Counted from the first letter of the stretch, positions 16,825 through 60,230 are shown. The stretch is DNA of 64,000 nt from Raillietiella orientalis (GCA_036172245.1 JAYWIR010000004.1:6634001-6698000); one strand, 5' to 3'. The notes: generated by a model not told the origin, from the letters alone. Numbers and translations: made by a program.

Positions 16825-16830
16825 AATAAA
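16825..16830 (+). promoter_or_regulatory. Probable polyadenylation signal of the cuticle protein gene
   Basis: AATAAA about 200 nt after the stop codon in otherwise GC-rich DNA. Confidence 0.6.
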
Positions 16831-16959
16831 AGGTGGGGCCAAGACTCATCCCCATCACCACCTCCGTGGGTGAGACTGGGAAGGGGGAAGGGGAAAAGAT
16901 CCTGAGGGACGCACCCTGATGAATCTCCACGAGGACGAAGGACAGCAAGCAGACGGAGT

Positions 16960-31365: not shown

Positions 31366-34300
31366 GTGAATTCCGGAACTCCGTTATTTCCTTCAGAACT
31401 TTGGCATTGGGTGCCAACGCCAAGGAGCGCTTTGCCTTCCTGGACGAAGTTTAGAATTCTGAGGGATGAGGTTTCGTTTACGCAACGCAGCGTTTCTCTG
31501 GGAGTCAGCCAGCTGCATCCTCAACTCCCCGGAAAGCACGACTCACGAGGAAGTTTCCCATCGGTTACTGGGCGTTGCCACCCGGGTACGCCCGGGGCGT
31601 TTATTAAAAAAAACTCTACATTACGTGGTACCAAGCCCACTATCGGCCAATAACACCGGACCTGCCGGGACGCCGGGACGCAGACCAGCGTGACTCTCCT
31701 CGGCAGTGAAAGGGGATGGGAGGGAAACAAAAAGAAAAAATAAAACATAAGCAAACAAAAAAAAGAGTTTGGAGGGCAAAGAAGGGATCACAGTTCACTG
31801 GGAGGAGGGCGCATCCTTTGTAAGAAGCCCTCGAGGTCCATCCGCATTTGTGCCAGTTTGGACCATCCGGCAGCTCTCCGCATGAAGCAAACTGCATACT
31901 GGATGACGTCCCCTCTCGTTCTCATCCTGTTCTTCGTCGTCGGCATTGCTCCAGGCCGCCACGATGCCTTGGATGCAGCAAAGTGCTGCGAGGGCTGCGG
32001 CTGGCTGCAGGGTGTCCCTCACGAAGAGAAGCCGGAAAACGTCTCTGGGCGTCACCGGGAGCCCGCAGGTCGTCCCAAAACGTTCCCATAGGGGTCGGAG
32101 GGCAGCACAATCCACAATAAGGTGGGGAAGCGATTCCCGCTCCCCACATCTGGCGCACTGAGGATTCACAGCTCCCCTTATCCAGTGGAAGCGGCGTGCG
32201 TTGCAGGGTAACCCCCAGTTCAACGGTAGCAGCAACGACTCTTGCCACTTAAGGGGCAGGATCCTCGATTCTTTTAGTACCATAGGTCATTTCAGCTCAT
32301 CCGTCGGGATGGCGAGCAGCTTGTCTCATCTCAATAAACCTCGCAGATGGACGCTCGGGGTCGTGGCGTCGGCCAGCTCTCCCATGGTCCATCCGCTGAT
32401 CAACCTCTCTCGTCCTGCGATGCGGCAGGAGACTTACCACCTTGGCGTCCGTCTACTGTAAAGTGCCCCTCCAGGAAGGGCAGAGCCGTAGCTAGGCAGG
32501 TCGTCTCTGCCCACGTGCTCATAGCGGGACACTCCAGTAGGTCCCGCTGGGTGCAGCGGGCATAGGGGCCGCGTCGCAGGCGTATCCATGTCTCGTGGCT
32601 CCTCTGGTTCACTACCGCCCACGTGCCGATAGTCTCCTCCAACCAGGCGGAGGAGTTGGCGGGGCTGCAAATCATGCAGATGTTTTCCTTCTCCAGGGTT
32701 GCCATGCGTCCGAGCAGTAGGCCGCATCTTCCAATCTTCCGGCCGCGGCACAGAAGAAAAGACGCTAGCCCTTCGGTCCCGGACACACAGCTGGCGAGGA
32801 GGCGGGCCAGAACGCACCAAGGGGTGCTCCACATCTTCGCTGCGATGGCCATAATGCGCCATCGCAGCAGTATTTCCACACGCTCCAGCGTCAGGAAGCT
32901 AAGATCGCCGTCCCGAAGCGGAGCGCACAAGTCCTTCAAAGGGACTCGGGGCCTCCCCTTGCCCCAAAGGGCGATGCGGAGGAGGTCCTTCGTCCTCTTC
33001 TTCACTTCGATGGTAACGGGACACACAAAAAGTAGAGGGCAGAGAATAGGGGCTGCAAACGCGTCCCAAACCGCGGTCCGTTCCGGCAAGTGAAACTTGT
33101 CTTCCAGGAACGGGCCGATCGCCAACTCCACTTTCTGAAGACGACCTCACTGGGTTACTGGGCGCGTCCGCTTGCTTCGAAAAAGGGGAAGGTCCGCAAA
33201 GCCCCTTGGCGTACCTTGCACGCTTCCTTTCCTTTCGTCTCAGAGTGCTTGCTTTAAGAAACGAGCGGCACGAAACGCTCTGGCGATTTTTCTGGAAAGG
33301 ATCGCAAAAGCAGCTATCGCAACCTCGGAACGTTTCCGATCCTGTGGAATTCTCTTTAGAACATGAAGGAATCGTCTCTGTTGAGGTGAAACGATTCCTC
33401 CACCTCCTTTCCGCCTAGGAACGGAGATCAGGCAGTTTCCTTTCGATACGCTCAGTGGGTTGTTCCCTTGCTGGACACCTTCCGCAGCCTTTTCGAGCGC
33501 GCGATTGGCCGAACTTTCCTATTCCTCCATTTTAGTTCTTAAAAGGAAAAACTCGTTCCTTCTGCCCTTTCGGGAGTATCTTTGACAGGAAGCTTCTATC
33601 TAGAAACGTAGTGTGGTCTTGCACGTCTTGATAATTTATCTCTGCCAACGTAGCCCCGCCAGCATCAACACAAAGCACCTCCAAAATTGGAAAGCAGAGT
33701 GACAAGTTGAGGATCCGGGCAGATTCTTCGACTTGCACGATCCACAAAATCCTTGCTCCAGTAGCATGAACCAAGGAATCTTCATTTCCATCAGTAAACA
33801 TCAAGGAGTAGTTTAAGTAGATGTTTAAGTGTGGTGTTCAGGAGGAAGAGACGGAAATGCTGGCAGAATCCACGAGATCCGAAGAAAAATGGTGAACAGA
33901 GTCTGGCCAGGACGGAGCCAGAGGAAGCTCTGGTGGTGGTCTGAAGAGACTTGACGTGCAAATGCTCTGTCAGAGAGAGGTGAGGTAGGGGATAAAGACC
34001 GATCGAACCATCTCGTTGCAGGGTCCGTTCGCAACTTTCCCCCAGGATAGCTATAGCTCGTCGAAGCGGAAGAAGAACGGAGTCTCATCCGGTAACGCGA
34101 GTGATTAGAAATGACCTCGGCCTTTTCCTAAACTTGAAGTTGGTGAGAGGTTTGGTCTGCTCCAGGTCCATTTTGGTGAGCAGAACTCGAGCAGAGGGAT
34201 GAACGAAGGGGTTGCGTCGCAGAGAGCCCGATGCGACACTTGGCACATCACGCGAAAGACGCTGGTTCCTACGGACCACGGGACGGTGGCCACGTAAGTG

Positions 34301-34830
34301 GGAGTGCGCTAAGGATTGTGTTGGGACTTGCCTGCCGGAGCGACCGGTCCTGGAGTTTCGTCGCGTTCAAGCGTCGAACCGACGCCTAGCGCCTAACCTC
34401 CCAGACAGATGGATTACGGCGCTGCGTCGTCGTCGGCAGCCGCAAACACTTGGATGACACGTTGGGGATCTGAGATCGAGAAATGTTCTACGAGAGCAGC
34501 CTCTGAGCATGGTCCAGTCTATCCTAATTCTTCGTATTGTCTGCGGACTTGGGATGAAAACACCTGGGAATTTAACAGTGTTGCTAGCAAGGCATACCTG
34601 TTCTAGACTGAAAGTTTCGTTCCTTCTGTCGCCAGAACTGTTGTGCAAATTAGCTAAGGAATCCTTCGCCGGTTCTGGTCTTTGAAATCGAAAAATAGAA
34701 CATTCCCAAAAGCTGAAATCAAAGTTTGGAAACAGCCGTTTGAGGACGTACGCAGAATACAGGAGTCGTCCTTCAATGGGTCAGTACTTCAACCGTGGAC
34801 AAGGAAGCTGCAAAATAAAAGTCGATCCTT
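31366..34830 (+). pseudogene. DTL: Decayed DTL/Cdt2 (WD40 CRL4 substrate receptor), interrupted by LINE copy 1
   Basis: HRLLGA|..ASKKGKVR across the insertion (EHVLAVANEEGFVR), CFKKRAARNA (ORF 33172..33366; CFKEWMAHWNA), GDQAVSF (GDQTAKF), GGRDGN (33841-33858, exact), RREPDAT (RQEPIAS), AN/LDDTL (ANCTDDNI), KAYLF (AAYIW). Donor GTAAGT at 34294. Confidence 0.85.
31575..33152 (-). mobile_element. 5'-truncated L1/Tx1-clade non-LTR retrotransposon, copy 1 (post-RT region + CCHC zinc knuckle)
   Basis: ORFs 32400..33131 and 31795..32283 (LCAPLRDGDL; CARCGERESLPHLIVDC..LW); 12-bp TSD GGTTACTGGGCG at 31563-31574 and 33153-33164; terminal motif at 31579-31605. Confidence 0.92.
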
Positions 34831-36214
34831 CTATCCCTTTTTTCTAGCTGATACTCAAATATTTGTGTCCCCCTGATGTAGCGTGTAACTTTTATCATAT
34901 ATAACAGGAGATTAACTGAGAAACCGGAACCTTGTACTTTTTTTGGTCATCTTGTGAGAGGTCCGTGTTTTTGATTTTTAGCTGATTCTCTGCTTCTAAC
35001 GTGCCAGCTCCTTAAATTTTCATTTGGAAGCAAATGGGAACACTCGAAGTCCCTATCTGATATCACAAGGTCAGTCCATATGGCGTGATGCTCATTTGCA
35101 TCTTAGTTTCCTTGCCGAGTTACAAATGGAAATCTTGATCACTTTACTGTCTCCTCATCAGATCGGCAATGAGTTTAAATATTGGCCGCCAGCAAGTCTA
35201 CGTGCCACTCTAGAAAGCCAAACGATTAAACGAACACCTCGCCTCTCTTTTAGAAATCCTCTCTGTTACGTCTGGAGTATTCCAGAACAATTCAACATAA
35301 GGTTTCAAGCAATACTTCCCGTACAGAATCAGATACTTTGCCCGTTATCTCTTCCAATGTATGTATCTCTGAATTTCAACCTATCTATCAGCGATAAAGT
35401 TTTAAATTCCCAAAATTGTTTGTTTCTTCCTTCTTGCAAGCATATTTTGTGTGAGGACCTTTTATGTATGTTTCCATCCCCCCAAGAATGAGAGAATTAC
35501 ATGTATGAATGGGATGATTCGAAAAAATGTTGCGAACTAAATTTCAATGAGGAATGTTTGTTTCCGGAAAAGGTGCGGCACAATGCGTTTTGTTAGCAAA
35601 CGCCGGATCACTGATCTTCAAAAACATAATACTTTGCTTTGCTTTGAAAGAGATAAATATGTGAGAATAACATGGATTGGATGTTGAGAACTCTTATTGC
35701 TTTATGGGAATGGGGAAAACAGCCTCACGACCAGGAAATGCCACCGAAAGTCGGTTCAAAATAACTGCATTCCAATTAAGCAAAGAGAAAGAAAGCAGCT
35801 GAGTGCTTTCCTGCCTCGGAGATGCCTTCATTGCTACCATTTGCAGAAACAGGAATGGGAATCACGAGAAGCCAAAACCCAATGTGTGTGACTCCACTGT
35901 TCTTAGCTCTTTGTGTGAAGTGAACACGGCATTCCTCCATACGCCTTTTCCCAGCAAGTGTGCAAGCGGTGGCACTCGATCGATGATGCAATGGTAACCT
36001 TCGCTACGAGGAAAGGATAGCCGAATGCAAAAAAGAACGATCGCATTCACGTCACGTCACTAGAAATGTACATCTATAATCTATTATTCCAGAAACGAGG
36101 AAACAAAGGAATAAAAATTAAGGAAAGCACGCAAGTGAGTAGCAAATCCCTGGAAATATAATCCCTGGAATGATCTTAAGTATGATCCAAAAACAGCAAG
36201 CAAACACGTAAAAC

Positions 36215-36600
36215 TATATATATACACATATATGCATACGATCTAACACATATACACATATGTGTACATTAGATATAAGACATATATATGTTTTTATCAC
36301 ATATATACATGCATATATGTACATTAGATATATATACATTAGATAATATTCACCTATATGAATGTATATATATATTATATATATATTCATACATATATAT
36401 ATATATACATATATACATTCATATATATATATATTCATAGACATATATATATATTCACATATATGCATAGACATAACATATATCATATGTCATACTTACA
36501 CACTGTGTACAGAAAAGGATGTACGTGCACACACAGCACGCATATCATAACGCACCACACATGCATATATGCGTGTCCATGCCTATCTATCTATGTACCT
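36215..36600. repeat. Degenerate (TA)n/(TACA)n microsatellite tract
   Basis: Long alternating TA/CA run; it produces the spurious YI-rich ORFs 36214..36486, 36358..36645 and 36362..36550. Confidence 0.95.
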
Positions 36601-36769
36601 ATTTGTATATTTTTTAATTTTCAATTTATCGTTTTTAATTTGTAAAGTTTTCTTTTTGAAAGAGAAAAAAGAAAACAGCGAAATACAGTCCAATAATCTA
36701 AGAACAGTTCCAAAGAAATTCTCTGTTTTCTAGAAAAATGTTCCGATCCAGAGTTGAAACACTGTAATC

Positions 36770-43845: not shown

Positions 43846-45571
43846 TTAGAGTAGTTGTTTGTCCACCTCTATCTTGTATTTAGAACAGTTGTTCAAGTGA
43901 AAACAGCCACGAGAAGAACCCGTAGCAATAGGAAATCGGGGGAGTGGGAAGGAAGGGAACTGCTGCTTCCATAAGTTCATGCCTTGCTTTGCGGACATTT
44001 AAATGCAGATGAAAATTGAATGTATGTTCTTATCGTATCCTTGACCCTTTCCTAAGCCAAGAAATGCTCGTTGTCCATTTTCTCGTGATTTCAGTGTACG
44101 GAGACCGAGTTCTGGATTGTAGTTTCCTGGTGTTGGAGTTTTCCCATGTTTCTTCCTTTCTCTATCGACGTTAACAGGAATAAAAAAAACAAAAAAAACT
44201 CTTCGACACTGAATGCTCGTCTTTCACATTCCTATTCTGAGATGCATCTCAGTCTCTCTGTTAATGCAATAGTTTTCTTGGAGGTTTGGTAATGAAAGCG
44301 AAGGAACCCCGCAACAGCGTGGTATGTAATGGAACCTCTCTTTCCACTTGAGGAATGCTCCACAAAGAGCATTCGTTATGGATTAATTATCAAAAATTGT
44401 GTAAGTAGTTCAGAGGAAATTCAAAAGAGATCAAGTGACGTCTCTTCCTGTTTTGCTAATAGAAATAAGGGTGCTTTCTGTCCTCGTAAGCAACCATCAT
44501 TCCGCCATTAAGTCATTTCCACAAGCAGCGGAACGATAAGATAACCTTCGGCGATTGATGACTTCGACTCTCAATCTTTATTTGGTTATTGTTGTTTACA
44601 AAGGTAGGAGCCAGGATCAACAGCCAGCTGTCAACGAACCCGTACTTTCGCCGGGATTCTCGTAGGAGAACCAGGCTTGACCAAACCCTACCTACTTCAG
44701 ATGCTGAAGCACCTAAATCACTATAAGCAAAATGGAGTATCTGCTTCTGAAATTCTGATCCCATCCTTCGCTGCTTGACACTCTTATTCATACACTTCAG
44801 TCGGAAAGCCATAAGTATTCCAGCACCATTGCACATCTCGAGGATCATTATTATGTATCAGATGTTATTGATGCCTAGTGATAATGCTGATAATTTCTAT
44901 TCTTCCGATTTATTTTCATAGATTACTAAGAGTAGCAGCTTATATTGTTGTATTTACTCCTCAGCTCTGTGTATCTATTCTATTCCTATCGTCGATAGGC
45001 AGAAATGGTGCATATCTGTGCTGGTTTCTGTTTCATCTTGTGTTATATCTGATATTACTCTCCAGAAAATAATAGCAAATAACCTTTAGTAGTGCACTCT
45101 ATACATTGACTGTGAATCGTAACAGAAAAACGTGTGTTTCGGCTTGATCTACAAGTATTACTTTCAACGTGTTTCTGTGGGTTTCAGCTTTCACAAGAAT
45201 ACAACTTTGATGAACTTAGAAAGTAATTGGCATTTTTGTTGTTGTGCTGAATTCTTGCCTATCTGGCAAAAAAGTTGAAGGTGTTTTTAGTTTGCGGTGT
45301 AGTCTCCCTTTTAAAAAAAAATTGTCATTGGTAAAAAGCGTTCGTTGTTTTCCAGTGACAGCTTTTTTTTCACTGGGAAAATAGAGTCTTTATGAACAGC
45401 TCACGATGCCTGTTGCTTGAAGCACTTCAAAAACTCATCAAATTGATGCGATAAGTTTCCAATCCAACGAATTCAATCAGTTCTTGGTTCTAATGTTCAG
45501 TTATTTCGTGACTTGGACGGCGCGACATTGGCTGTTGAAAAGTGTGTTTTGAAACACATCCTGTCTTCCAG

Positions 45572-46956
45572 AGTCTCGCCTCGTTGCTGCCAATTTATGG
45601 AAATTTCATTTCCGGATTGATACTTGGATTTATCACACCAGCCCTGTACTTTTTGCAAAATCCAGAAAACAACTACGGTCTCGTACTCAATGTAGATGAA
45701 GCGAGCTGGTTCGCCAGTTTGTTCTTTTTCGGAGCCATGCTGGGAGTTACGTTGCTAGCTTTCTCCACGACATTTGGACACAAACAGATGTTATTCCTTA
45801 CTTGCCTCCCCCGTTTGATGGCATGGTACTTACTGATGACATCGTCTACAGTTTCCTCTCTTTATCTGGCACAACTTCTTGCTGGTCTTAGCTTTGGTAT
45901 AGACCAAGTAGAAAGCATAGTTTACTGCAAGGAAACGGTGGAAGCAGATTTTAAAAGATTCGTTGTGGCAATGACATCACCTGCAAACACTCTCGGCATT
46001 GTGGTTATCATTCTCTCTGGTAAGGTGGACAAATTGAGGATTCTATCTAATGCCCCGTTTTATTTCTTACAGGTAAATATCTGTCTTACACTTACCTCAC
46101 AAAAATTGGCATAGCTAGCAGTGTTTTACATGCGATGCTCACTATGCTCGTACCCGAAACACCGTACAGTCTGTTAAAGAACAACAACTTAAAAAAGATG
46201 CAAGAAGCCATTGATTGGTTGCAGTGGTCTGAGAATGGCAAACTGGAGCTGAACTTATTTAGAAAAGAGGAAGAACAAAAGCAAGAGAAGAAATCATCAT
46301 TTAGTTTGAAAAACTATTTCGATAAAGAGCAGCTAAAAGCTCTTGCTGCTAGCTGCTTGTACACGAGCTTCCAACGTAACTTGGGTTACCTTGGTATTCA
46401 AACTTACGCTATGGAATTCTTCCGGTTTGCTAATATCAGTTTTAACTCCACCGACGCTTCTATTTTGCTCGTCTCTATCCAGCTAGTGTCTCAAATCCCA
46501 TCATTGTTGTTCATAGATCGCCTAGGGTCTAGGAAAATCGGAATGATCTCCAGTTCCCTGATGTGCCTTTGTTATGTCGTAATTATTATTTACAATGAAG
46601 TATTACTGCCTATGGGAATCCGGTATTCGAACTGGATTTTTTCCATTGCCTTTTTTTGCTCAGTGTCCATGTACGGTTTTGGTCCGTCTGTCTTAAGCCA
46701 GGTGTTGCCTGGGGAACTCTTCAAGGAAGGAACAAAACAGTGGATATGGTCAGCATACGCTTTCTGGTCATATTCCTGTTATTTTGAAGCCACTAAATCG
46801 TTCCCCTTTGTATACAGAGACTTTGGTTTTACAGGAATGTTTGTGTTTTTTTCGATTGTTGCTTTCCTCACGTGTATCATACACACTCTTCGCTTGTGTC
46901 ACCCCAACATGGATCGCAAGGACAAACTGGATGCCATGGAGAGCGTGAATCCTTGA
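45572..46956 (+). CDS. MFS sugar porter, Tret1 (facilitated trehalose transporter)-like; exons 45572-46019 and 46073-46956, short first exon probably 45493-45507
   Basis: ORFs 45542..46114 and 46135..46956 join in frame after removing a 53-bp GT-AG intron at 46020-46072 (ILSG-KYLSY..VPETPY). Sugar-porter motifs GFITPAL, EASWFAS, PETP, IDRLGSRK and GFGP..LPGELF; multiple hydrophobic segments; acceptor at 45571. Confidence 0.9.
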
Positions 46957-48463
46957 AAGTCTCAGTTTATTGAGCTTTAGTTCCATAGAAGACGACTGTT
47001 AAGTCCTTAACGTACCCCAACCAGATCCCCAGTCGTGATGCCGCTGTTGTTGTTGTTGACCGGTACTTGTTTTACTCAATTGTTCAAGGTAATGCTGTTA
47101 TGCAGTCTTTATTTCCCCTTATCACTTCTAAGTGATATTAAATGATATTTTGATACCAATGACTTATTTTTTCTTTTCTTGGAGATCCAGATACTTCAGT
47201 TGGAATAGACACGCGAAACAGAGTGGCTGGGTTATTATTTGACCACCACCACCAACTAACCAGGAAACCATGGACAGCGTTTGGAAGATGCTGGACGAGA
47301 AATCTGATTGAGCTGATGGAATTCGGGATACAGAAAACGGAGTGGTTTGGAGTGCTCGAATTTAACGAAAGACCTGGATGGAAGTCGTATCACTTTACTG
47401 GTCTTGCTTGCTTAAACTCCTGAGAACACTCAATCCGAATGAGAAGAAGGCCAACTACCGAACAAGAAGGCCATTCGCAAACAGATTTTTTCCCTAGAAT
47501 AGGAGCAGCGCTTTAGCAATTACGTTAATCGAGTGGAATTTAACTTTTTTGCCAGATAGCCTAGACTACTGAAGAGAAAAACATTCTCGTGAGAAAGCAG
47601 TTTTCAGGAAAGAAAATCAGCAAATCCACGATTCTTGGTCTCTTTGGAAATTGAGCGTAATTATCCAATTTATAGTAGTGTATTTCTCTGTGCTGAATTT
47701 CCTGACATGAAAACTGTGTTTCAGCAATCGTAGGGAACGGAATCGTGATCACAGAAACTTAGATATGTGAAACGTAATCTGAAATGCAAGCATGGAAAAG
47801 CAAACTCGAGATATCGAGCTCATTTGCACTGGCTTGGTTGCGTTGCTTCTGTTGAGAAAACTTTCCTTTTTTGTATCGATATTTCATACATTCAGCTAAA
47901 GGAAAAAGTCTCAAGTTATGTCGCTCTTGTCCCACTTATGCTCCAGTTTATTTACTGCCAAACATGTTTATTTTATGGGAGAAGCTTTGCATCGTAATGA
48001 AACTCTTGAAATGTTAAGGAACGCCAAAACTCGGTCACTCCTACTTGTATTCACTTTTACTCAGAGATTCAGAAGAAGAAAATCCAATCCAATGAGCTGA
48101 GAACACACCCTTGAAAAAACAAACCATATACAATCATGGCTACTGAAAGCCAAAAACAAAACAGAATGGTACAGTAAGAGCAGAGTATTGAAACTTGATG
48201 ATTCTCCCGATGAAAAGAGAACACAAAATGGATGTCCAAGATTTAATAGAATATTATTTAGCTTGAGTGCAAAGTATATGATTTCAATTAAGTCCATTTA
48301 CAAGGTGGACTTCTCTTTGCCATGGGAACGGTTGAACAGTCGAATTTCCATGGGAACTTCTATAGGAAAAGAAAATGGGAGGCAACGAAATATCTACAGC
48401 TGAGAACCATTTCTTCTTCAGCTCAAGAAATCAACTACATCAATGCAGAATCAACCAAGAAAT

Positions 48464-50665
48464 CTTTCACCAGGGTAAGCCGGGGCTTTTATTATTAAAA
48501 CACATTTTTACAATTCTTAATTGCTGTCAATTATTGATTAGTTGTATTTGTGTTCCTGTCAGAACACATTGTTCGTATTTCTTATGCACTTGTTTTCCGA
48601 CTTGAGTGCAGGTAAGGCCTTCTCCACTCGCGAAGGGGACGAGAAAAAGAAAAACAAAAAACGAAAAACGAAAAAAACGCTTGGGGGACGATGTTCATGG
48701 GGAGGGGAGGGAAGGTAAGGGATCACTGTTCGCCGAGGGGAGGCCTCTGCATCTGGTTCCGGATGCGAACAAGTGCTGGCAGAATTTTACTCAGCCGGCG
48801 CCTACGGGAAGCCTTTTCCATGGAGATGACCGCCCAGTGGATGGCATTCCGACTACTGTGGCCTCTTATTGACGCGTTCCACTTGTCCAATATTCCCCGT
48901 ATGCAGCAGAGAACTGCAACACACGCGGCACCTGGCAGGGAGTTCCGCATCAAGAGGCGACGAAAAATATTTTTAGGGTCGCCCACCGGTACGCTTATGG
49001 CCGACGAGAGTCGATCCACCTGCGGCGGAGGGCGACACACTCGATTAGTAAGTGGGAGAATTTCTCCGTTTTCCCGCACTCTGTACAATGGGCATCCAAT
49101 CTCCCCAATGTCCAGTGAGACAGGCGTGCTCTGCTCATAAGTCTCCAATGGAGCACAAGCAGCGCCGTCTCCTGCCAATCCAAAGGGAGGGTGCCACTGT
49201 CCCAATATGCCGGTAGCCACTTCACCTCCTCCGGAGGCATGCCGAGCAGCTCGCTCCAGCGCACAATTCCATTTGGCGGGACACTCGGGGTTGTAGCGTC
49301 CGCTAGTTCCCGGGACGTCCACACCTTCATTAGTTTTTTCCTGCCTCCGATGAGGCAGGATACTTCATAAGAAGCCTCCTCTTGGCTGTCCCTGGCTTCT
49401 ATGAGAAAGGGCAGCACGGGGGCAAGGGGGGTGAATGAAGCCCACAAAAGCTTTTGTGGGTTGGAAACGATCTCCAGCAGGGGCTGGCCAGCGTTCCTGC
49501 CTCGACGAAGATAGAAGTCCACTTCGCTGGAGCCGTTGATTTTTGCCCACGCGGAAACGGACTCCTGGAGCCAGGAAGTCCAGTTTGCGGGGCTGCAGGA
49601 GATCCACGGGTTGCTCCTCACCAGGGCCACCAATTCCCGTAGCTGAAACCCACAATGGTACAGTCTACAGTCGTTGGCCACTAGGACTGAAGTCAATCCG
49701 TCGCAGCCGGTTGCCCTGCGGGCGAGGAGTCGTATGGGCGCACACCATGGTGCTGTCCAATATTTTGCCGCAAGGGCAAGTTTCCTTAGTTGTAGCTGAC
49801 GCTCCATGCGCTCCAACGTCAGGAGACCAAGTCCACCGTCCCTGCGTGGAGCGTACATGTCTTTAAGTCGGACGCGGAGCCTCCGGTTACCCTAAAGGGC
49901 TTTCCTGATGAGGCCCCTTGTCCGTGTTCTAATTTGGGGAGGGGCGGGGCACACAAAAAGTAGAGGGCGAAGGAGGGGGGCCGCAAAGGCGCTCCACACC
50001 GCGACCCGTTCCCGCAAGTAAAACTTGCCGTCCCGGAACGGGCCGATCGCTAACTCCACCTTTTGAAGACGGTCGGACCCGGCTTCTGCAATGCAGAAGT
50101 CCCCCAACAGAACGCCAAGGTACTTGATGTACCTGCCCGTGGGGATCCTCAAGCGGATCCAGTCCGACCGTCCTACCCGCGACGAGTCCGAGAAGATGAT
50201 CGACGACTTCTCCCTGTTCACCTCCAGGCCCGTCCCGCGGCACAGCAGCTCGAATAAATCCTCGAGCGCCGATGCCGGGGTGGACCCGGGGAGCAGGAGC
50301 AGAAGGTCGTCGTCATAGGCCGACGCGGCAGGAGTGCAGGGACAAGAGCTCGGCAGGGTTGCCAAAGTCTCCCTGTATGCTCTCAGCACCAACTCAAAGT
50401 AGATGCTGAAGAGTAGGGGGCTGAGGCTGTCGCCCTGCCGGATGCCGCGACGAACCGGCACGCCGTACACGTGCCGGCCGCTGAAACAAATATTGATGTA
50501 TGCGAAGCGCCAGCAGGAGCGCAGGTGGGCCAGGAAGTCGGCCGGAAATCCCATGCGTTCCAGAAGCTCCAGGAGGAGTTCCTGGTTGACGCAGTCGAAA
50601 GCTTTACGCAGATCGACTGCGACCGCAAGGGCTCCGGGCGCCGCTTCACCCCTTCGGCTCAACCA
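48464..50665 (-). mobile_element. 5'-truncated L1/Tx1-clade non-LTR retrotransposon, copy 2 (most of RT + C-terminus)
   Basis: RT motifs DLRKAFDCV, RGIRQGDSLSPLLF, AYDDDL, GLEVNREKS and KYLGV (ORF 49892..50785); one in-frame TAG at 49892-49894; YAPRRDGGLG and CTECGKTEKFSHLLIEC (ORF 48995..49858); frameshift near 49015. TSD AGAATCAACCAAGAAAT at 48447-48463 and 50666-50682. Confidence 0.96.
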
Positions 50666-52039
50666 AGAATCAACCAAGAAATAAACTGACCCATTCATGC
50701 CATTTTTAATACTTGATGTGGATTGGGAGAAGAATCCGTAGGTGCATTTTTCTCCCAAAGCGACTTTATTTTCTAAATAAACCACTTTGAAAGTTGATTC
50801 AATTTTATTTATTTATCATGAAATTGGTGCTACTTTAGCGGACTGACCTCAATTAAGGGTTTCTTTTCAAGAGCGCATTCTTATTTTTTTTAGGAACTCC
50901 TATGTTTCAGAAAAGCTGAAAGTCGTGAGGAAAACAGCGAACTTGCTATGACCCTTTCAATCATTGCAATGTTTACCAAAGATATCAGGCGGTTTTGGAG
51001 CTATGAATGCTACGGATGAGGGCATCTCGATCAACATCTCTCCTGGTTTCCGTTCTTAATCTTTCGTGCTCTCACTTTAAGAAAACCTCGAAGGCATCAT
51101 CTTCATCTGAATTCACTTAACCCACTCGAGTACACGGTTGAGTTGTATTTCGACATGGGAAATATTTTTAACATAATAAAGATTAATTAATTAAGGGGTT
51201 CAACTTCAACCATGAACATGTTTTTTCATGAATTAATTGAAGGGTTCATCTCCATTATTTTTTTCCTTTTAAAACCATGAACATGCTGAGGTCAACCTTG
51301 ACTGATGTTGGTCTGTACGACTGAGTGTTAACAAAACTCCAAAGTACCTGGCTGCGGCCATTGAGCTTCCTCTTCTTTTGCAATTCACCGGATATAGTCG
51401 GCATGAAATATAATCTTATCTTGTTAATCCATTAGTTGCAAAAAGAAGATCATGTTAGGAAAAAGAAAAAAAAATACGACCTCATTATGAGGGCGGAAGA
51501 GTTTTTGGAAACAGGCAAGATGCCGAAAAGAAACGAACTTTTAGAGAAAATGTACTTTTACTGTGTGTAAGCTGAACGTTACGCACGAAAACTTGAAATA
51601 TCCGAATTCCAAGAACAGTGGAATACAAGCAGTTTCATTTTTAGATGGTTAACTCGGAATAGCATTAAAATTCCCGGAAAACTCCTTCCGATCAAAAGGC
51701 TCAAGTCTTTCGCAGCTCAACACAGGGCACGTTCTTCTCTTTGAGATATATTTATTCTCTCGATCACCTTTCAGAAGGATGTTGTTGACCCGTTCGGTTT
51801 ACATTCTTCTGACAGGCATCTTCATTTCTCGTCTTAATTATAGCATTGAAAATCTGCAGACGATTCAAAAGAGGCGGCTTTTTTTTCTTCTTTTACATCA
51901 CAGGCAGCTTTTACATTCACCGAATAAAATATTATGTAAAGTTTCTGCTTGCTTCAAATCGCACCACAAATGTAGGCAACACTGAGCTCGCTTAACGCCA
52001 GCTGGTTTTATTCTTCAGTCTTCATTAACTTAACAGTTT

Positions 52040-52620: not shown

Positions 52621-55600
52621 AGAAGACGCAGTAATTCTCCGAACTGGAAGTAGGCAGACGAACGATCTCTGAGACCACCTTACAAATAGAGGGCATAGAT
52701 CATGTCCCTGTACCAGTCTTACTATGATTCAGCTAGTTGAATTCAGAGTATCAAACTTTCCAACATTTTGTTTTTACTGACATCTAGAAAACAGGAGCGT
52801 ACAGCTTGTCTGCTATGTTCCTTACAGCAGTGTTCTCGGATTTTGAACTGCTGTTTGCAATGCCGTTCTTTGGTAATTACTTTCTCTTTAGTGGGTTCTC
52901 TCTTCATCATCTTTCTTAGGAGTTCTGTTCCCTGTTCTTAGGATCCTCATGATACTCGATTGCTCTCCCTCTTCCCTTTTTCTTTCCTCCGGAAGAGTTC
53001 CGTTCGTAAGTACAATTCTTAAAGGAAAAAAAAACAGATTAGATATTTCATTTTGTGATGCAAGTTTCGAAATGGCTCTGTACAGTACCATTCGAGAAAC
53101 TGCCATTACAATACAGCAATGGATCAGTAACTCATAGATCTCACTGCTGAGAACCGTAGCTTCTTCCATATCAGCACTTTAGTCAACCAGTAATCTCAGT
53201 TGGCTCCACTGTGTGTTGTTAATGAAGGAGGGAGAGATTGACCCAGCAGCAGATTCAATAGCAGATTCATCGATGATTCTGTTGATCTGGGTCTATCAGA
53301 TAATGTCGAAAAATTCCCATGTTGATGTTTTGTCTCTAATGGAGAAATTTTTAAGTCTAATGCAGCGTTCAGTAACTGGCAAAGCAAAGAAACATTTACC
53401 AGTACAGACATAAAGCTCTGCTTTATAAAAAGCTAAAAATGAAACCTCAGCTAGTAAATAATTTAAAGCTTATTATTTCCTGTCTCTTTAGTTCCGACAA
53501 TTTCCTAAAAATATGTTCTATTATATTTTCAAGGACTCCACTCAACCCGATCGCCCCCATCATCAATCACGGAAGACTACATATTAATGGAACATATTGC
53601 ATACTTTGTTCATAAATCAAAGCTCATTTCGATGCTCTCTATAAGATGCAACTGCTGTGTGTTGTGTGAACTTCCGAATAGTGCAGGATGTCTTGTACCC
53701 ATGATCTGCTCAAAGGTCCTACGTATATGCGCGATTAAATAGAGAGCAGTTGAACGCTCTCTGTTTAATAGAGAACGCTCCTGTTTTCTAGAAAAATTTG
53801 TTGGAGTTTATCAGTCGCAGATCCAAGTTATGGGACTCCTTTTCTCTTCTTTGGATTCAGAAGCGTTATAGACATTGAAGAAAAACTATTTACATCTTCC
53901 TTACCAATTAAAAGTATTTCACAATTGCGTCCTAAAAAAAAAATAGCTGTGAAATAACATGGAAATGCTAGCAGATTAAACTAAGGATCGACCGTGGTGA
54001 GACACTGGCAGTCTGATTGATTTTGGATGTTATTTTATAGCATTTAATCCACGTACATGAGGTTCTACAAATATTCATTCAATTTAAAAATAATAATCGA
54101 TGTATATTACAGGGCATAAATATATTTAATCAGTTCATTATTTTACAAGATACATTTAACAGATACATACATTTTATATAATCTTTATGATTTTATTCTG
54201 AAATAAGAATGAGATCCGAATTAAGATTCTCCTCTCCGAATTCATCTCCGAATGAGAATTCTGAAATGCATTGATTTATGGATACCACAAATGTATATAA
54301 TGTTAATATGCATGATGGTCCATGATTAGTAGCCAGCAAGGGATGATATTTAATGCATCCAAAAAAGTTAATCACGATACGTTTCCCTCTAAAAATGAAT
54401 CTGTATGTAAAGTTTCTTATAGTTTCCATGACTTATAAATAGTTAAAGGATTCTTTCATTGCGTATGGCTCACAAACAAGAAAGCCATGGGCGAATGTTT
54501 GTGGCAATAGCACTCTGTCATCAGTCAGTCATTTTTTCATAATATTTGGAGATTTCTAGAATGAAGATCAGCAATTTGAAGTGCCTACTGAAATGACAAA
54601 GGATGCTGTTCATCCCTGGGTGCATCACTTCTCAGCTGCTAAGGGATGATACTAGATCTAGCATCCAGTGTAAGGTCAGAGTAACTAATAATGCCGAATA
54701 AATCGTTCTTTCTAAGTAGGTTTTATTCATACTAAGATGCGCAAGAGTTAGAGAAGGAAACTGGAGCTGCTTTCCAGAGCATTCTAACAAGAATCTAAAA
54801 AACTGCGAAACGATGGAGTCAAAATCGTAAAAGTCTTAAAGGAAGGCAAATCTGACAAAGTGCTCTTTGGGAACGTTTCTCTTAGTAGCCCATTTGCAGC
54901 TTTTCTAATTTTCCGAAAAGGAAAAGATCGTAAAAAAAAAAAAAAAATGAATTCAGAAGAAAAAACTGCTTATTTTCAAGAAAGCTAAAGAGCATCTTCT
55001 CGGAGATGAGCTGTTGATTGCATTTTTTGTTTGCGAATGCCCCTGTGAGAAGACAGCTTGCCAGGATTGTTAGCAGATTAAAGATGAAATGAATAGTCGC
55101 GACCTCGACCATTCAATTGCCTAATATATTGCCTGTTTTGTATACACACAAAAGTGCTCCTTCCAGTTGGGTTTTTAATCCTAGGGATTTCTAGGTAGGG
55201 TGTGATACTTTGCTTAATTCCCAGTCGTCCTGGTGGATGTTCGGCTTTCTCCGCGCAGATATGCATATCTATGTATACATAAATAACCTGACACGCATAT
55301 ATTTCATCTGTGTATGTATGTGCATGTGTCTCTCTGTTTGCATATGCGGACAGCCTTATGTAGCCAACTGATGTTCTTGTTGCTTGTCGGAAGAGAAATT
55401 ACGAGACACGCATGTGACGAAAGACGAAGGAAGGCAGTTCACTTGATTGTGTATCGTAGCTACAGTACAGGTGGCAAGCAACCAATGAAGAATCGAGAGG
55501 CAGGGGAAAAGAAAAGAAACATGAAGCTTTCGAAATGCATTCATGGAATCGGATTAGGATTCAGAGCTCATTTTTCAATTATGCAACAACTCCATAAGCC

Positions 55601-57344
55601 CAAGTGAGGCCAAAATGCCATTTGGAAAACGAGCTGCCTGGAAGAGAAACAAGCTTGTTCGGTTCCGTTTGAGTTGCTGTGCACATAAGTGAACACACAG
55701 AAATCAGCAGATCTAAGCTTGCAAAAGTATAAACAGATATCCTGGCATAATTTCTTCAAACCCTCCGTGTTCTAACACTAAGAAAACACTTGAAGCAAAT
55801 CCAAAGAGGCAGGGAAGAGCTGGGAACACGAGATGAACGATTTAGAAGGAAAAGCTTCTTGAAGTAAACACAGTGACTGATTTTTTTTTTTTTTTGCATG
55901 TGGCCTATTCGCAAACTGCATGCACGCAGTAGATGGCAAAGGCTATCGTCAGAATTGCAATCGTGAGATTCGAGTAATGGATTTCAGGAAGCTGCATAAA
56001 ATTCATGCAGTTTTCTATAAAAATTCAGCGAAGACATCCCATAGATCAGCCTTGGGGATCGTATGTCAAACGCAATAGCGAATAACACGACATCGGCTCT
56101 CGATACCGCATCCATCCACCTGCCTGAGAAAACTTTTTGTAGAAGCTCACGAAGCTATTTAAGTCTTATGGAAACAGTATCACGGACCAAAGAGGACATA
56201 CCATATTTCGGAGGACCTAAAAAAAATACCAAGACGATCCGAAGACGCTCTTCAAAGAATATCAAGTATTGGTCGTACATCAAAAAAATGAGGATGTCAA
56301 CAAAAATTGCACCACACACTTTTGGCTTTGTAACCGAGGCAGCTGGCAGTTGAATCGAAGGCAATTACGCCCGAAGTCTAGCAAGACCTCGATGATTAGA
56401 TATAATGAGGTCGTAGTGAAGCGCTGATGCTGAGAAAATGAAGTTAAAAAAAAAAGGAGAGAGATGAGAAACCAGGAAGAGTTAATTAACAGAAATCAAT
56501 AACTCAAATCATCAGGAAATCCTGCAGCTAGAGTAGAAGTGGAGTTCATAGTGCACTTGGTCAGATGAAAGAGCTGAAAAGCACTGTGTAGAGTATTTCA
56601 TGAAGAGTTACCGAATGCAATCGCATGAAAAGGCAAGAGAAAGAGAGAATGCATCTCTTTCGTGCCTTTTTGGATCCATCCATTCGGGATCTTAGCGAGG
56701 AATCTTCCAAACTTTGGGGTTCTATTCTGCAGTTTTGGTGATTGCTTCTCACGATACAAGTTTGGAATTCCTAAAACACTGGATATCAAAAAGTCAGAGA
56801 TGGAGTGGACATAAATGTATCCTAATTGAGAGTAAGCACCCTGGACGCCCCCCAAGTTGACGGTCGGAACAACCGTTTTCGGAACGGGTCGGCATCAACA
56901 TGTGATAGCAAGGGTGTTCACCCTCGAGAGATACCAGAAGCACTTCTTGATTTGCTTCTTAAGCATTGGAAGGTGACACTACGATGAGACGGTGACGTGG
57001 GAATACTTGATGACGCTAGACGGAAAATAGGAGCATTATGGTGTGATCAGTGCGTGCTGAAGCTCGAATTCCTTTGCATAAAATCCGAGGGAAAGGACCT
57101 GGAGTTCTTGAAGAGATCTCCAGAAGAGATTAGACGGCATTTTTTTCGTTCCTCAAAATTTGCAGAAATCAGGCAGCTCACGAAAGGAAAGGAAAGACGT
57201 TGGGAGGATGTGGCGAAGTTACCCGAAATCCTGACGTGGAGCAAACTCAGTCTTGCGGGAACCGGGAATAAAAGGGAAAGAGGAAAAATGAAAACAACTG
57301 ACAGAACCTTTGTTATCGAAGTGCCCGTCCTCAAAGGGAGAGAC

Positions 57345-57660
57345 GAAACCAAGAACCAGCAGAGTTCTTTTCAAGGATCTGGCTTCCCCGATAGATGATG
57401 TTTGCTTGTGAAGACACTGAGATGCCAAGCGAGGTGAAAGCCATCTATATGGATTTCAAAGTGGGAAGGTTTCTTCCGCGAGTCTAAGGAGATGAAAGAC
57501 AACTCCGCGGAGGCGTGTTGCCATCCGAAAGCGAGAGCACTACACGAAGGGTTGTACCTGTTCCTCAGGCAACGACCAAGAACCAAGTTCACTGGAGCAA
57601 AAGCGAAGAGTTCGAACGAGCTGCTGCAACAATTTGCAAGACGAACAGCTCTCAATTTTC
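57345..57660 (+). pseudogene. TAF13: Decayed TAF13 (TFIID subunit 13)
   Basis: RVLFKDL/MMFACEDTEMPSE (RLFSKELRCMMYGFGDDQNPYTE), then EGLYLFLRQRPRTKFTGAK..NELLQQFARR (ORF 57492..57716; EDIVFLIRKDPRKFARVK..NEELKRARK). Confidence 0.78.
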
Positions 57661-58596
57661 TTAACCTTCTGCTTCCCCAGACACAAAAGCAACTCCCTCG
57701 CTCCTCCTCTTGCTAGGTGGTTTCTAAAAGTGCTCGAAAATCGTATGCTCTGGAAGTAACCTCCATTCCTTCTTCACTTTCAAGATTTACTTTCCTTCGA
57801 AATCTATCTTATCTTCGAAATCAATCTATCATGCCTACATAAGTACGCAGAATTGTGGCGTTAAACTCGGACAGATCCCACGAAACAGCGCAATTGGAGA
57901 ATCAAATCCAAACGCAGTCTCCATAGCAAATAGAAGGGAGGAAACATGGGCAGAGCCCATTCTTCGAAACATGCAGCCTTAGATTTCCGAACAATCCTCT
58001 CATACTTCCGGAATCTTCGATTCCTTGAGATCGACAGATGCCACAATGAGACGACTGGAAGAGACAAATCAGGATTTGTTCTCCGTGCTCGGTAAACGAC
58101 ATGGAGCGATCCTGGCTTTTGCCGCCCTTGCGTCACTTGATACCCGTTCTCTTGATTCCAAGTACTCCCCCCTCCCCTTTTCCTCTTTGGCCATGTCCAC
58201 TGCTGCTTTGCTCTTTCCCGTCCAAAGGCGTGTACCTGATTTCGTTGCTCAGAAATGCTCATTCCCCTTTCTCTGGAGCACGCTGGTTTTCTACGGCTTT
58301 GTGATACAAACACTCGTGATGCATGTCGTTAGTGATTCGGGATGACAAACCTTAAATGATAGGGTTTTCTGAAACTCGACTCATCCCAACGAAGACTGGA
58401 TGGAATTTGTTCTGGCTACATCCAGAAACAAATGTGCCCCATCCCGAGATGATCCGAGATCTTTGATCCTGTCCGTTTCCGAGACCTTAAAAGCGAAGCA
58501 GAGGCATCCATCCATACATGAAATGCGGAACAAATTCTTTTCGTTGGAGGTCTGAGAACCGCAAGTCATTATGGTCTTCCGTCTCTGTTGAGCTGT

Positions 58597-60230
58597 TTCT
58601 CACCCGGGTGCGCCGGGGCGTTTATTTCTAAACTATCCAGGAACAGAGTTCCCGGACAAAGGACACAGAAGAAACGAAGGGGGGGAATCCCCGACACGCA
58701 GACCGGTAAACCGAAAGTCCGGAAAGGGAGGGAGGGGACCACAAATACACATATAAAAAATAGAAATAAAGATATGGGGAGGGTAGGGGACAGGGGTCTT
58801 TGGTTTGGCCGTTCCTTTCTTTCAGAACCGGTTATGGATGCCGGTGATCTCGCTCCTAACGCCCTCTGAAAGATGGGCCCACTCGACTGCCGACGTCATG
58901 CTTGCGCTGGCTAAACCGGTGGGCTGACGAAGGATGGCCAGCTTCTCCAACTCTCGGTGGGCCTTGTCGATGGCGCGGGTGCAACACACGGTTGCAACGA
59001 CAGCACCTAAAGAAAGGCCGCCTGGCGTGAAGAAGCGGCGCATCAAGTCTCTCGCGGTGTCCCCCTGGTGCAGGAGAGCTGAGGCCAGTCTCCGCCACAG
59101 TCTTTGGAGGACACCGCAGTCCAAGAGCAGGTGCGGGAGCGTTTCCACGTCCCCGCACCGTTTACAGTTCGGGGAGACAACTCCCCCGGAAACACGGTTC
59201 GTCCGCTGGTTGGAGTGAAAACCCCAATGCACCAGCATGATGACGTCCTGCTTCCAAGAAAGGGGGAACACAGAAGTGTTCAAACAGGAGGGAAGGACCA
59301 CAAGTTCTTCGGAAGGCACACTCAATAGTTCGCTCCACCGAAGGAATCCTTTCGGGATGGTGCGAGGCGTGGCGGCGTCTGCCAGCTTGCAAGTCCTCCA
59401 GCCGCCTATGGGTCGGGTTGCTCCTGCGATGGTGCAGACGACCTCCCACCTCACCGGTAGGCAGCTGTCATCTCTTGCCCTGAGGGCTGAAAGCGCGTCG
59501 GCGAGGGGCGTGACGGCCAGGCGAGTCCGCTTCTCCTGGATGTTCCGGACCTTATCCACCGTGCAGTACAGGGAGAGGTTGGCGCAACAAAGTTCCAAGA
59601 GCGAAACATTCTGTTGCTTTGCCCAGGCATGCAACGATTCCTGCCGCCAGGCGTCAAAGTTCTTTGGGCGGAAGGAGACCCATGCGTGGGCTACCAGGAG
59701 CCGGTAGAGAGGTTTCAAGGAGAAACCGAAGCTTCTCGTGGTGCGCTCCGTATGCGGCGGGAGCGACAGAAGGCCATCGCTGCCGGTGCAGCGCCGCAGG
59801 AACAGGCGCGCGGGAGCGCACCACGGAGTGGACCAAAGGTTGGCGCACAGGGCCAACATCCGAAGCTGCACCTTTAGCTCGATTCTCTCCAGCGTCAGGA
59901 TGCCCAAGCCGGCATCCTGACGCGGAGCCGCCAAGTCTTTGAGGCGGATCCTGGACCTCGCAGGTCCCCACAGAGCGTTCCTCAACAGGCTTTGTGCCTG
60001 GAGCTTGGCCGAGTAGGGGGGCGGGCAAACAAAAAGCAGGAAGCGCGAGAGGGGGGCAATGAAGGTGTTCCATATCGTGGCCCGCTCCGGCAGGACGAAC
60101 CTGCCATGGTGGAACGGGCTCAGAGCATTCGTAGCCTTCCGAAGGCAGTCCGACCACGCTTCCACTGGGCTGGTGTTCCCCAGCGGGACGCCTAAGTATT
60201 TGAAAGACTTAGCACTGGAGCTGGAGTTCC
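58597..60230 (-). mobile_element. 5'-truncated L1/Tx1-clade non-LTR retrotransposon, copy 3 (uninterrupted ORF2 C-terminal half)
   Basis: ORF 58822..60258 is open from FKYLGV through LAAPRQDAGLG to CKRCGDVETLPHLLLDC..LW; TSD GT(T/G)GAGCTGT at 58587-58596 and 60231-60240 (9/10); terminal motif at 58601-58626. Confidence 0.94.

Follow-up and report, generated by a model that had tools for sequence, protein, structure and literature searches.

How does a LINE whose reverse transcriptase (RT) has its affinities with L1-group elements come to end without a poly(A) tail, and why do copies with strongly diverged proteins share the same short ending? The question is raised by a window of 64,000 nt (the whole stretch of DNA analysed here) from Raillietiella orientalis (GCA_036172245.1 JAYWIR010000004.1:6634001-6698000), an arthropod-type animal genome, in which four old, inactivated LINE copies lie on the minus strand:

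31575-33152, minus strand: LINE copy 1, 5'-truncated, 1578 bp, ORF split over several frames, bounded by an exact 12-bp target-site duplication (TSD).
48464-50665, minus strand: LINE copy 2, 5'-truncated, 2202 bp, with RT core, C-terminal region and CCHC.
49892-50812, minus strand: RT-core reading frame of copy 2, the query for family placement.
58597-60230, minus strand: LINE copy 3, 5'-truncated, about 1634 bp, its 5' limit varying with the TSD register accepted.
61268-63000 (approximate limits, ~61.3-63.0 kb), minus strand: LINE copy 4, more decayed than the other copies.

Relative to the protein P0001, all four copies are truncated at the 5' end. Copy 1 matches residues 410-599 of P0001 in tblastn (33140-32571), and copy 2 matches residues 189-584 at 63% identity, with one in-frame stop and at least one frameshift in its coding sequence. 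Copy 3 retains a single open frame of 482 aa up to its stop (58822-60270). Copy 4, which was missing from the initial annotation, belongs to the same lineage: its DNA resembles that of copy 3 (59014-59496 with 61720-62204, and 59814-60107 with 62517-62821) and also that of copy 2, and tblastn aligns it with residues 356-592 of P0001. Between copies, protein identity is 35-46% over the longer alignments and reaches 66% over one 59-aa stretch. With proteins only ~40% identical, the copies appear to represent at least three families, so that their earlier description as different subfamilies with dissimilar 3' UTRs was, if anything, an understatement.

The limits of the insertions were set by the duplications that flank them:

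31563-31574, unstranded: 3'-side TSD of copy 1, GGTTACTGGGCG, exact 12 bp.
33153-33164, unstranded: 5'-side TSD of copy 1, GGTTACTGGGCG, exact 12 bp.
48447-48463, unstranded: 3'-side TSD of copy 2, AGAATCAACCAAGAAAT, exact 17 bp.
50666-50682, unstranded: 5'-side TSD of copy 2, AGAATCAACCAAGAAAT, exact 17 bp.
58587-58596, unstranded: probable 3'-side TSD of copy 3, GTTGAGCTGT, matching 60231-60240 at 9/10 positions.
60231-60240, unstranded: probable 5'-side TSD of copy 3, GTGGAGCTGT, matching 58587-58596 at 9/10 positions.

The 12-mer flanking copy 1 has just two exact occurrences in the window. An extra partial copy of the target, TCAACCA, lies at 50659-50665, before the 5'-side TSD of copy 2. 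The pattern flanking copy 3 is not uncommon (six matches in the window with at most one mismatch, versus 4.2 expected), and an alternative, exact 7-bp duplication, TGTTGAG (58586-92 and 60240-46), would leave an 8-nt tail; around copy 4 the search returned 7-mers only and no TSD. Because 5' truncation is accompanied by TSDs, insertion of these LINEs by target-primed reverse transcription is supported.

Since exact TSDs fix their ends, copies 1 and 2 can be seen to end exactly 4 nt past the sequence GGTG, with the TSD directly adjoining, and copy 3 ends likewise in the 9/10 register. The 4-nt offset claimed for all three copies is therefore firm for two of them and probable for the third. As had also been proposed, poly(A) tails are absent from these three ends, the longest A-run being 3, as are microsatellite or other tandem-repeat tails. 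The primer-side target ends (...GGGCG, ...GAAAT and ...GCTGT) are not T-rich, again in agreement with the initial annotation, and, a single T apart, are complementary neither to the element ends nor to poly(A). The three empty sites are unrelated sequences and are not repeated within the window. A mammalian-type 'relaxed' L1 was rejected on the absence of both a poly(A) tail and a T-rich (TTTT/AA-like) nick site at the three ends.

Immediately upstream of the terminal 4 nt, each of the three copies carries the motif first noticed at these positions:

31579-31605, minus strand: copy 1 motif, AATAAACGCCCCGGGCGTACCCGGGTG, 27 nt, followed by GCAA (31575-31578).
48468-48493, minus strand: copy 2 motif, AATAAAAGCCCCGGCTTACCCTGGTG, 26 nt, followed by AAAG (48464-48467).
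58601-58626, minus strand: copy 3 motif, AATAAACGCCCCGGCGCACCCGGGTG, 26 nt, followed by AGAA (58597-58600).

The consensus is AATAAA and GCCCCGG(G)-NNN-ACCC(G/T)GGTG followed by 4 nt, the motif of copy 1 being 27 nt long because of a 1-nt insertion. A degenerate 26-nt pattern found copies 2 and 3 at zero mismatches, with 0.00 matches expected from 100 shuffles. In the three-copy alignment 22 of 27 motif columns are invariant; the variable positions are the loop (columns 37-38), column 27 and the last 4 nt, and the stem is invariant but for one change. In global alignments the terminal 30-31 nt are 77-87% identical between copies, as compared to 40-45% for the remaining 3' UTR (ungapped columns; 25-39% over all alignment columns) and 48-54% for the last 900 nt of coding DNA (ungapped columns). 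That so many columns are invariant despite diverged proteins and unalignable UTRs indicates that the terminal element is under selection, and no other part of the elements is conserved to nearly this degree, which argues for a role in cis. In the 3' region of copy 4, TATAAAGGTCCCGCG... is present and the ACCCGGGTG (GGTG) half of the motif is absent. No further copy of the motif occurs in the 64-kb window, nor does any SINE or short element with this tail, nor any tRNA-like gene. A histone-mRNA-type 3' stem-loop was rejected, there being no match to the Rfam histone stem-loop model at the gathering threshold across the whole window, and none at E values up to 1 around copy 1 or up to 10 around copy 3.

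The initial annotation took the conserved feature to be a hairpin, a claim that fared poorly. The GC-rich near-palindrome, CCCCGG-loop-CCCGGG, can form a putative 5-bp stem in which 14 of 15 cells pair across the three copies. The CCGG stem described for every copy can form in copies 1 and 3, but in the register common to those two, copy 2 has a C.U mismatch mid-stem, at the sole variable stem position, and the G-U pair ascribed to it exists only in a shifted 4-bp fold. No pair is changed on both sides, a covariation test that has little power with three sequences. Local folds gave z-scores of -1.2, +0.5 and -1.5 for copies 1-3, with 16, 141 and 19 of 200 shuffles folding at least as well, and in 126-nt contexts the motifs of copies 1 and 3 take part in other pairings in the minimum-energy folds. 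The hairpin is weak, and its fold energies are no better than those of shuffles. The specific proposal of an animal L1-group lineage without poly(A), whose ORF2 protein would read a ~26-nt AAUAAA-GC-hairpin and start at one nucleotide, R2-like, at non-T-rich targets, is in our view possible but somewhat doubtful.

P0001, which is 70% identical to the RT of copy 2, has human L1 ORF2p as its best solved-structure match (residues 395-773, 7e-40), as compared to 7e-17 for R2. The nearest full-length relatives are 26-30% identical (E values of 1e-43 to 1e-30), and most combine PF03372, PF00078 and PF13966. The four copies and P0001 are all truncated before the RT N-terminus, so the APE and ORF1 regions are not covered, and PF03372 (the APE-type endonuclease) was seen only in the roughly 30%-identical full-length relatives. 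Copy 2 matches RVT_1 at 1.2e-16. A C-x2-C-x7-H-x4-C zinc knuckle follows the RT/thumb in the translations of copies 1, 2 and 3, where zf-RVT scores of 4.8e-5 (24.4 bits, copy 2) and 0.0032 (18.5 bits, copy 3) both lie below the 27.5-bit cut-off; the C-terminus of an Ixodes relative aligns with copy 3 at 5e-5. In two trees built without curated L1, Tx1, RTE or CR1 references, the lineage fell in a starred clade with support of 96* (54 rows, LG+G4) and 95* (34 of those 54 rows, mixture model). Its partners in both were plant L1-type, fungal and animal APE-RT-zfRVT proteins, with a PF14529-bearing outgroup apart, and its branch is long and isolated (1.0-1.5 changes per column). These comparisons support an affinity of the RT with L1-group elements (L1/Tx1). 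The earlier 'L1/Tx1-like' label agrees with this at the level of the group, L1 and Tx1 both being candidates; for Tx1, one protein-atlas neighbour cluster is named after it (score 0.88, lead level only), while Tx1-type target specificity was not seen, the three insertions lying in three unrelated sequences, albeit at only three sites.

What, then, sets the shared end? We hold with moderate confidence that the copies are four dead insertions of a deep-branching L1-group lineage with stringent-type recognition of a 26-27-nt 3' cis element and a fixed, tail-less end. Active members would have kept the element (AAUAAA, the GC-rich near-palindrome and UG), and the ORF2 protein would bind this terminal element of its own RNA. 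Insertion through target-primed reverse transcription at unrelated sites that are not T-rich would then involve cDNA synthesis beginning at or beside the end of the templated sequence, with no pairing between the target-DNA primer and a poly(A) tail, in an R2-like start of the kind proposed for the stringent L1s of monocots and of green algae. The copies themselves, their ends and TSDs, the terminal conservation and the L1-group affinity are what the sequence shows; we infer that the motif is read by the protein, that the stem outweighs primary sequence, and that the RT rather than RNA 3' processing sets the start.

The RT-measured start has a live rival in 3' processing, because AAUAAA and the end are 24-25 nt apart and A prevails in the last 4 nt. 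The conserved block may be a processing module (AAUAAA plus a structured spacer), with the end a cleavage site ~24 nt downstream, the RNA polyadenylated, and the RT starting at the first 1-3 A's or the A-tails since lost, so that recognition of the hairpin would be unneeded. The hexamer is invariant in all three copies, and its distance from the end falls inside the usual window for cleavage and polyadenylation after AAUAAA, 10-30 nt. The last 4 nt contain 8 A in 12 positions, versus 19% A in the elements (P = 4.6e-4), two of three ends finish in AA, and the stem is without covariation; with an A-rich terminus, the 'tail-less' end could be a processing site plus a vestigial A tail of 1-3 nt. 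The offset that the initial annotation attributed to measurement by ORF2p comes from only three copies, one with an ambiguous end, and could instead be set by cleavage and polyadenylation. However, a poly(A) signal alone leaves unexplained the near-invariance of 20 nt past the hexamer at ~40% protein identity. Copy 2 ends in G right before its exact 17-bp TSD, and the end tracks GGTG, not AAUAAA, when copy 1 gains its 1 nt: the GGTG-to-end distance is constant, whereas the AAUAAA-to-end distance goes from 24 to 25 nt. Nor are the primer ends T-rich, as annealing to poly(A) would favour. We regard processing as rather unlikely to account for the shared end.

It is improbable that the shared ending is instead young, a ~30-nt 3' module passed between diverged families by RT template switching or recombination, which would say little on long-term constraint. 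Similarity does begin abruptly at the T-rich/AATAAA boundary, with the UTR upstream unalignable, and the 3' half differs in copy 4, a member of this lineage. Yet no longer tract is shared by any pair of copies, the few differences fall outside AAUAAA and, but for one change, outside the stem, and the presence of the same module at the same position in three separate families would still imply that a 3' end owes its function to this module. Most improbable of all, the 4 nt past GGTG may be untemplated, A-biased RT additions to an RNA ending in ...GGUG, their equal length coincidental: they differ in all three copies, are A-rich and abut intact TSDs, so that the differences are not post-insertion decay, but equal length would have had to arise three times (twice under the alternative register of copy 3), and, because the copies belong to different families, templated ends peculiar to each family would account for the differences just as well.

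The stringent reading can be set beside several known systems. R2 has a precise, tail-less 3' end; its RNA is recognised through the 3' UTR and reverse transcription begins at a defined point on it, with no primer-template annealing. These copies share the precise end and the lack of a tail, whereas R2 has a restriction-like endonuclease and a 28S rDNA target; here there are three unrelated targets and an RT nearer to L1 ORF2p. L2/CR1-type stringent LINEs end in short tandem repeats. Unlike them, these copies have no end repeat, and their RT stands apart from the PF14529-bearing outgroup proteins. The ORF2 proteins of the L2/CR1-type elements UnaL2 and ZfL2 recognise a 3' stem-loop (PMC4176376), the mechanism to which the initial annotation appealed, and UnaL2 ends in TGTAA repeats (PMC3747384). 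The Tx1 group (Tx1L, Keno, Kibi, Koshi, Tx1-Mar) lies within the L1 group and occurs in non-mammalian animals, but its members are described in PMC4494074 and PMC1950540 as specific for targets such as a DNA transposon, U2 genes and microsatellites, unlike the present insertions into unrelated sequences.

The closest parallel is found within the L1 clade itself. Strict 3'-end recognition had been treated as foreign to this clade, a view now out of date, as lineages of the L1 clade that are stringent and conserve a 3' stem-loop have been published (Ohshima 2012, PMC3472496), among them the monocot '1a' lineage, including LINE1-1_ZM, and Chlamydomonas L1-1_CR; PMC3747384 likewise gives an L1-clade precedent with a conserved 3' end and hairpin. 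The divergence given there is 0.144 in the last 45 nt, versus 0.570 overall (PMC3472496). These elements and the present copies have in common an L1-group RT, last tens of nucleotides far better conserved than the remainder, and a short GC-containing hairpin near the end with conserved flanking bases. The published hairpin shows compensatory changes and has partner SINEs with the same tail (PMC3472496), unlike these copies, which have no A-run above 3, no covariation, no SINE in 64 kb and an animal host. L1 families without a 3' repeat (9/233 in flowering plants and 5/15 in green algae; Table 1, PMC3472496) resemble them in belonging to the L1 group and in having neither poly(A) nor a microsatellite at the end. 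As Ohshima 2012 describes both stringent L1s and no-3'-repeat L1 families, one of the outcomes that the initial annotation named as refuting it, an RT grouping with a clade in which ends of this kind had been recorded, has in part come about.

L1s with stringent 3' ends and L1 families lacking a 3' repeat are already known, and the lineage described here, in an arthropod-type animal, is a real but fairly ordinary case of a LINE that probably needs its own 3' end for copying. In Ohshima's proposal, L1 was stringent in its ancestral form, and 'relaxed' priming on poly(A) came later, more than once. If stringent recognition holds, and if the lineage lies near the base of the animal L1/Tx1 elements, these copies would provide animal-side evidence for that stringent ancestor.

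Four minus-strand fragments of one LINE lineage were identified by tblastn with P0001, a partial database relative of the copy 2 reverse transcriptase (RT) core, and by self-BLAST of the window:

31575-33152, minus strand, LINE copy 1
48464-50665, minus strand, LINE copy 2
58597 to ~60230, minus strand, LINE copy 3
~61268-63000, minus strand, LINE copy 4, more decayed

The 5' starts of all four fall within or beyond the RT domain, the kind of 5' truncation that target-primed reverse transcription typically leaves. Copy 2 matches RVT_1 (1.2e-16) and, below threshold, zf-RVT. Copy 3 retains a single open frame of 482 aa up to its stop codon, and the frames of copies 1 and 2 are broken by stops and frameshifts.

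Copies 1-3 share an ending of the form GCCCCGG-N3-5-ACCCNGGTG, which follows an AATAAA hexamer and closes on GGTG; shuffles of the window put the chance expectation of the degenerate pattern at 0.00. The motif was read back from the sequence at each position listed in the initial annotation (31579-31605, 48468-48493 and 58601-58626). Copy 1 is flanked by an exact 12-bp target-site duplication (GGTTACTGGGCG) and copy 2 by an exact 17-bp duplication (AGAATCAACCAAGAAAT), and in both the gap between GGTG and the duplication is exactly 4 nt (GCAA and AAAG, respectively). The duplication of copy 3 is imperfect, with GTTGAGCTGT and GTGGAGCTGT agreeing at 9/10 positions (or 11/13 on direct reading). 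Because a competing register, an exact 7-mer, would give copy 3 an 8-nt tail, the claim that all three copies end 4 nt after GGTG is secure for copies 1 and 2 and probable for copy 3. The longest A-run at these ends is at most 3, even counting the first base of the duplication, in agreement with the reported lack of a poly(A) tail. The presumed priming DNA ends (...GGGCG, ...GAAAT and ...GCTGT) are likewise non-T-rich, as had been proposed, and show no complementarity to the element ends. The shared tail-less ending is a real and statistically secure observation. Copy 4 keeps TATAAAGGTCCCGCG without the ACCCGGGTG half of the motif, and no duplication was found around it, its two sides having only 7-mers in common, of which ~3 are expected by chance (an estimate). 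At the 5' junction of copy 2 (50659-50682), an extra partial target, TCAACCA, lies directly before the 17-bp duplication, so that part of the target is present three times; LINE integration is known to leave irregular 5' junctions of this kind.

The proteins of copies 1-3, previously assigned to different subfamilies, share 35-46% identity over longer alignments (one 59-aa stretch reaches 66%), a divergence at the level of families, not subfamilies. Global DNA alignments of the three copies give identities over ungapped columns of 48-54% for the last 900 coding nt and 40-45% for the 3' UTR upstream of AATAAA, which is effectively unalignable, consistent with the initial description of these UTRs as dissimilar. 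In the same alignments identity rises to 77-87% over the terminal 30-31 nt, and 22 of the 27 motif columns are invariant across the three copies. The copies differ in the last 4 nt, in the column next after AATAAA, at two positions of the loop and, in copy 2, at one position of the stem. Since perfect duplications indicate little mutation after insertion, the differences between copies, including those in the last 4 nt, either existed already in the source elements or arose as the copies were inserted. It is a solid conclusion that selection acted on the terminal block while the lineage was active.

Whether this block acts as a hairpin is a separate matter. A stem had been described in each copy, with a G-U pair in copy 2. 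The 5-bp CCCGG/CCGGG pairing is possible in copies 1 and 3, but in the same register copy 2 has a central C.U mismatch, and its G-U pair occurs only in a shifted 4-bp fold. Pairing is possible in 14 of 15 cells across the three sequences and no pair varies on both sides; therefore, the covariation that would mark a conserved stem is absent from the three copies. Local folds do not beat a shuffled background: of 200 shuffles per copy, 16, 141 and 19 equal or surpass copies 1, 2 and 3. When 126-nt 3' regions are folded, the structures are inconsistent (z = +0.46, -0.82, -1.98 and -0.62), and in copies 1 and 3 the motif enters other pairings in the minimum-energy fold. An Rfam search at the 3' ends gave no family match. 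In favor of a stem, variation falls in the loop and the arms are fixed. The three sequences fit sequence-specific and structure-specific recognition alike, so that the two cannot be told apart, and the hairpin is without independent support. In copy 4 (61262-61299, minus strand), CCGCG/CGCGG pairing is possible after TATAAAGG with a loop of 14 nt. This stem, if homologous to CCCGG/CCGGG, would amount to two compensatory changes, on both sides of the stem; with an undefined terminus and 67/200 shuffles folding as well, it was not counted toward covariation. Further upstream in the 3' UTRs, on the minus strand, lie GGAAC-N3-GTTCC hairpins in copies 3 (58650-58672) and 4 (61325-61340) and a GTGTTC-N6-GAACAC hairpin in copy 2 (48545-48565), and copies 1 and 3 have GGTCTGCGT in common ~100 nt from the end. 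The hairpins with GAAC/GTTC arms and GGTCTGCGT are possible further conserved UTR features, seen in few sequences.

The reading we moderately favor is that the RT would recognize the terminal block and begin cDNA at a defined nucleotide, perhaps on an RNA whose end comes from cleavage and polyadenylation. Two observations count toward it: the spacing between GGTG and the end stays constant, even where an extra G in copy 1 shifts the AAUAAA-to-end distance from 24 to 25 nt, and the primers need no complementarity. The element end also fits a cleavage/polyadenylation site in itself, with an invariant AAUAAA placed 24-25 nt before the end, inside the usual hexamer-to-cleavage spacing of 10-30 nt, and with A-rich last 4 nt (8/12 vs 19% A in the elements, P = 4.6e-4) that could be a vestigial A-tail. 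Polyadenylation alone, however, would not require invariance in the 20 nt past the hexamer, and the final base of copy 2 is a G. The initial annotation had ORF2p recognize the hairpin and start at a fixed point; recast as the RT reading the block, this mechanism is plausible but unproven, and its hairpin component is not upheld by the covariation and folding results.

To place the lineage, the copy 2 RT core was scored against 1.84 billion representative proteins. The only matches better than 1e-30, and the only proteins more than 50% identical, were P0001 (70% identity; 619 aa long) and a second relative, P0002 (77% identity; 132 aa long), both partial sequences; the next best were at most 32% identical. 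The lineage thus stands alone in present protein collections, and annotated sets contain hardly any trace of its RT. P0001 derives from a JGI metagenome contig of 2870 bp, and its full-length relatives (26-30% identity) mostly combine Exo_endo_phos, RVT_1 and zf-RVT, the named ones belonging to ticks, frog, lizard, fishes, plants and fungi. Against the PDB, P0001 matched human L1 ORF2p residues 395-773 at 7e-40 and R2 at 7e-17; with the shorter RT core as query, L1 and R2 scored nearly alike (6e-15 vs 1.6e-14). The copy 3 C-terminal frame gave spurious PDB matches only, and a word-based search of its 482-aa frame against longer proteins gave nothing. A protein atlas returned generic RT clusters and one Tx1-named cluster (score 0.88). 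In a quick LG+G4 tree of 54 rows (4 of the 56 candidates were excluded because their coverage was short), the lineage fell inside a starred clade (support 96) of 41 rows, apart from the outgroup proteins bearing PF14529. Members of this clade are plant L1-type, fungal and animal proteins with the Exo_endo_phos + RVT_1 + zf-RVT architecture. A mixture-model tree of 34 of those rows, 20 being dropped to save time, gave the same placement (starred, 95), with the lineage on a stem 1.5 long inside a group of 17 rows, animal and unnamed (support 91, unstarred). The trees, which contain no curated L1, Tx1, RTE or CR1 references, support the L1 group as a whole rather than L1 or Tx1 in particular, and the L1-group label is reasonable. 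Tx1 insertion is target-specific according to sections 15-16 of PMC4494074 and an excerpt of PMC1950540, unlike what is seen at the three sites here. "Tx1" in an excerpt of PMC4176376 was rejected as a clade name, being a mutant-protein label there.

The window is eukaryotic and arthropod-like, and most of the closest atlas clusters come from arthropods. Other features found by domain and Rfam searches are:

15602-16621, plus strand, very GC-rich cuticle-protein frame with two Chitin_bind_4 repeats (domain search)
29293-29468, plus strand, U2 snRNA-like sequence covering the full model (Rfam, 28.7 vs threshold 46 bits, E 0.008)
33869-34438, plus strand, eukaryotic LSU rRNA fragment (Rfam RF02543, 102.5 bits, model positions 675-1444 of 3401)
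45539-46956, plus strand, two frames with Sugar_tr/MFS domains (domain search)

The cuticle-protein frame lies in a very GC-rich block (14000-19500, 58-67% GC) with a diverged internal duplication (16901-17243 vs 19101-19447, 74% identity). The U2-like sequence, likely a decayed pseudogene, lies ~2.1 kb away from copy 1, which does not interrupt it, and the LSU rRNA fragment, probably also a pseudogene fragment, lies ~700 bp beyond copy 1's 5' duplication with no other rDNA nearby. The Sugar_tr/MFS frames probably represent exons from a sugar-transporter gene, with copy 2 following ~1.5 kb downstream in the opposite orientation. Simple repeats comprise an AT-rich microsatellite/minisatellite block (36220-36498; periods 2, 20 and 32) and a G-rich 19-bp tandem repeat in four copies (7949-8023).

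The initial annotation had regarded strict 3'-end recognition as typical of L2/CR1-type LINEs, and L1-clade elements as usually priming on poly(A). In a monocot L1 lineage, the last ~45 nt are conserved (divergence 0.144 vs 0.570 overall) and form a hairpin with compensatory changes that is common to maize and sorghum SINEs (Ohshima 2012, PMC3472496). A Chlamydomonas L1 and SINE have a common tail, 9/233 flowering-plant and 5/15 green-algal L1 families are without a 3' repeat, and the ancestral L1 was proposed to be stringent (PMC3472496), an account repeated in a review (PMC3747384). The L1 clade is thus already known to include strict 3' recognition and tail-less ends, and the present lineage, a tail-less LINE of probable stringent type, is of a known kind within the L1 group. 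What is new is that an arthropod-type genome holds an isolated lineage whose compact ending has no repeat, with AAUAAA inside the conserved block and a GC near-palindrome within the last 25 nt. Open-access keyword searching turned up no account of an animal or arthropod L1-group element ending in this way, which does not prove absence. The sole match in a degenerate-motif scan of genome contigs, in a Synergistaceae MAG, was rejected, as it lies in a pilin-like gene with no LINE homology; one match is about the estimated chance expectation.

For annotation, A-tails are useless for delimiting copies of this LINE lineage. The choice of template by the RT decides which other RNAs, such as SINEs and mRNAs, LINEs mobilize, and the L1 group is the textbook "relaxed" case that reads poly(A). 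The ~30-nt ending offers a compact candidate recognition element for experiments, and further L1-group lineages with a conserved tail-less 3' end help to date the onset of relaxation.
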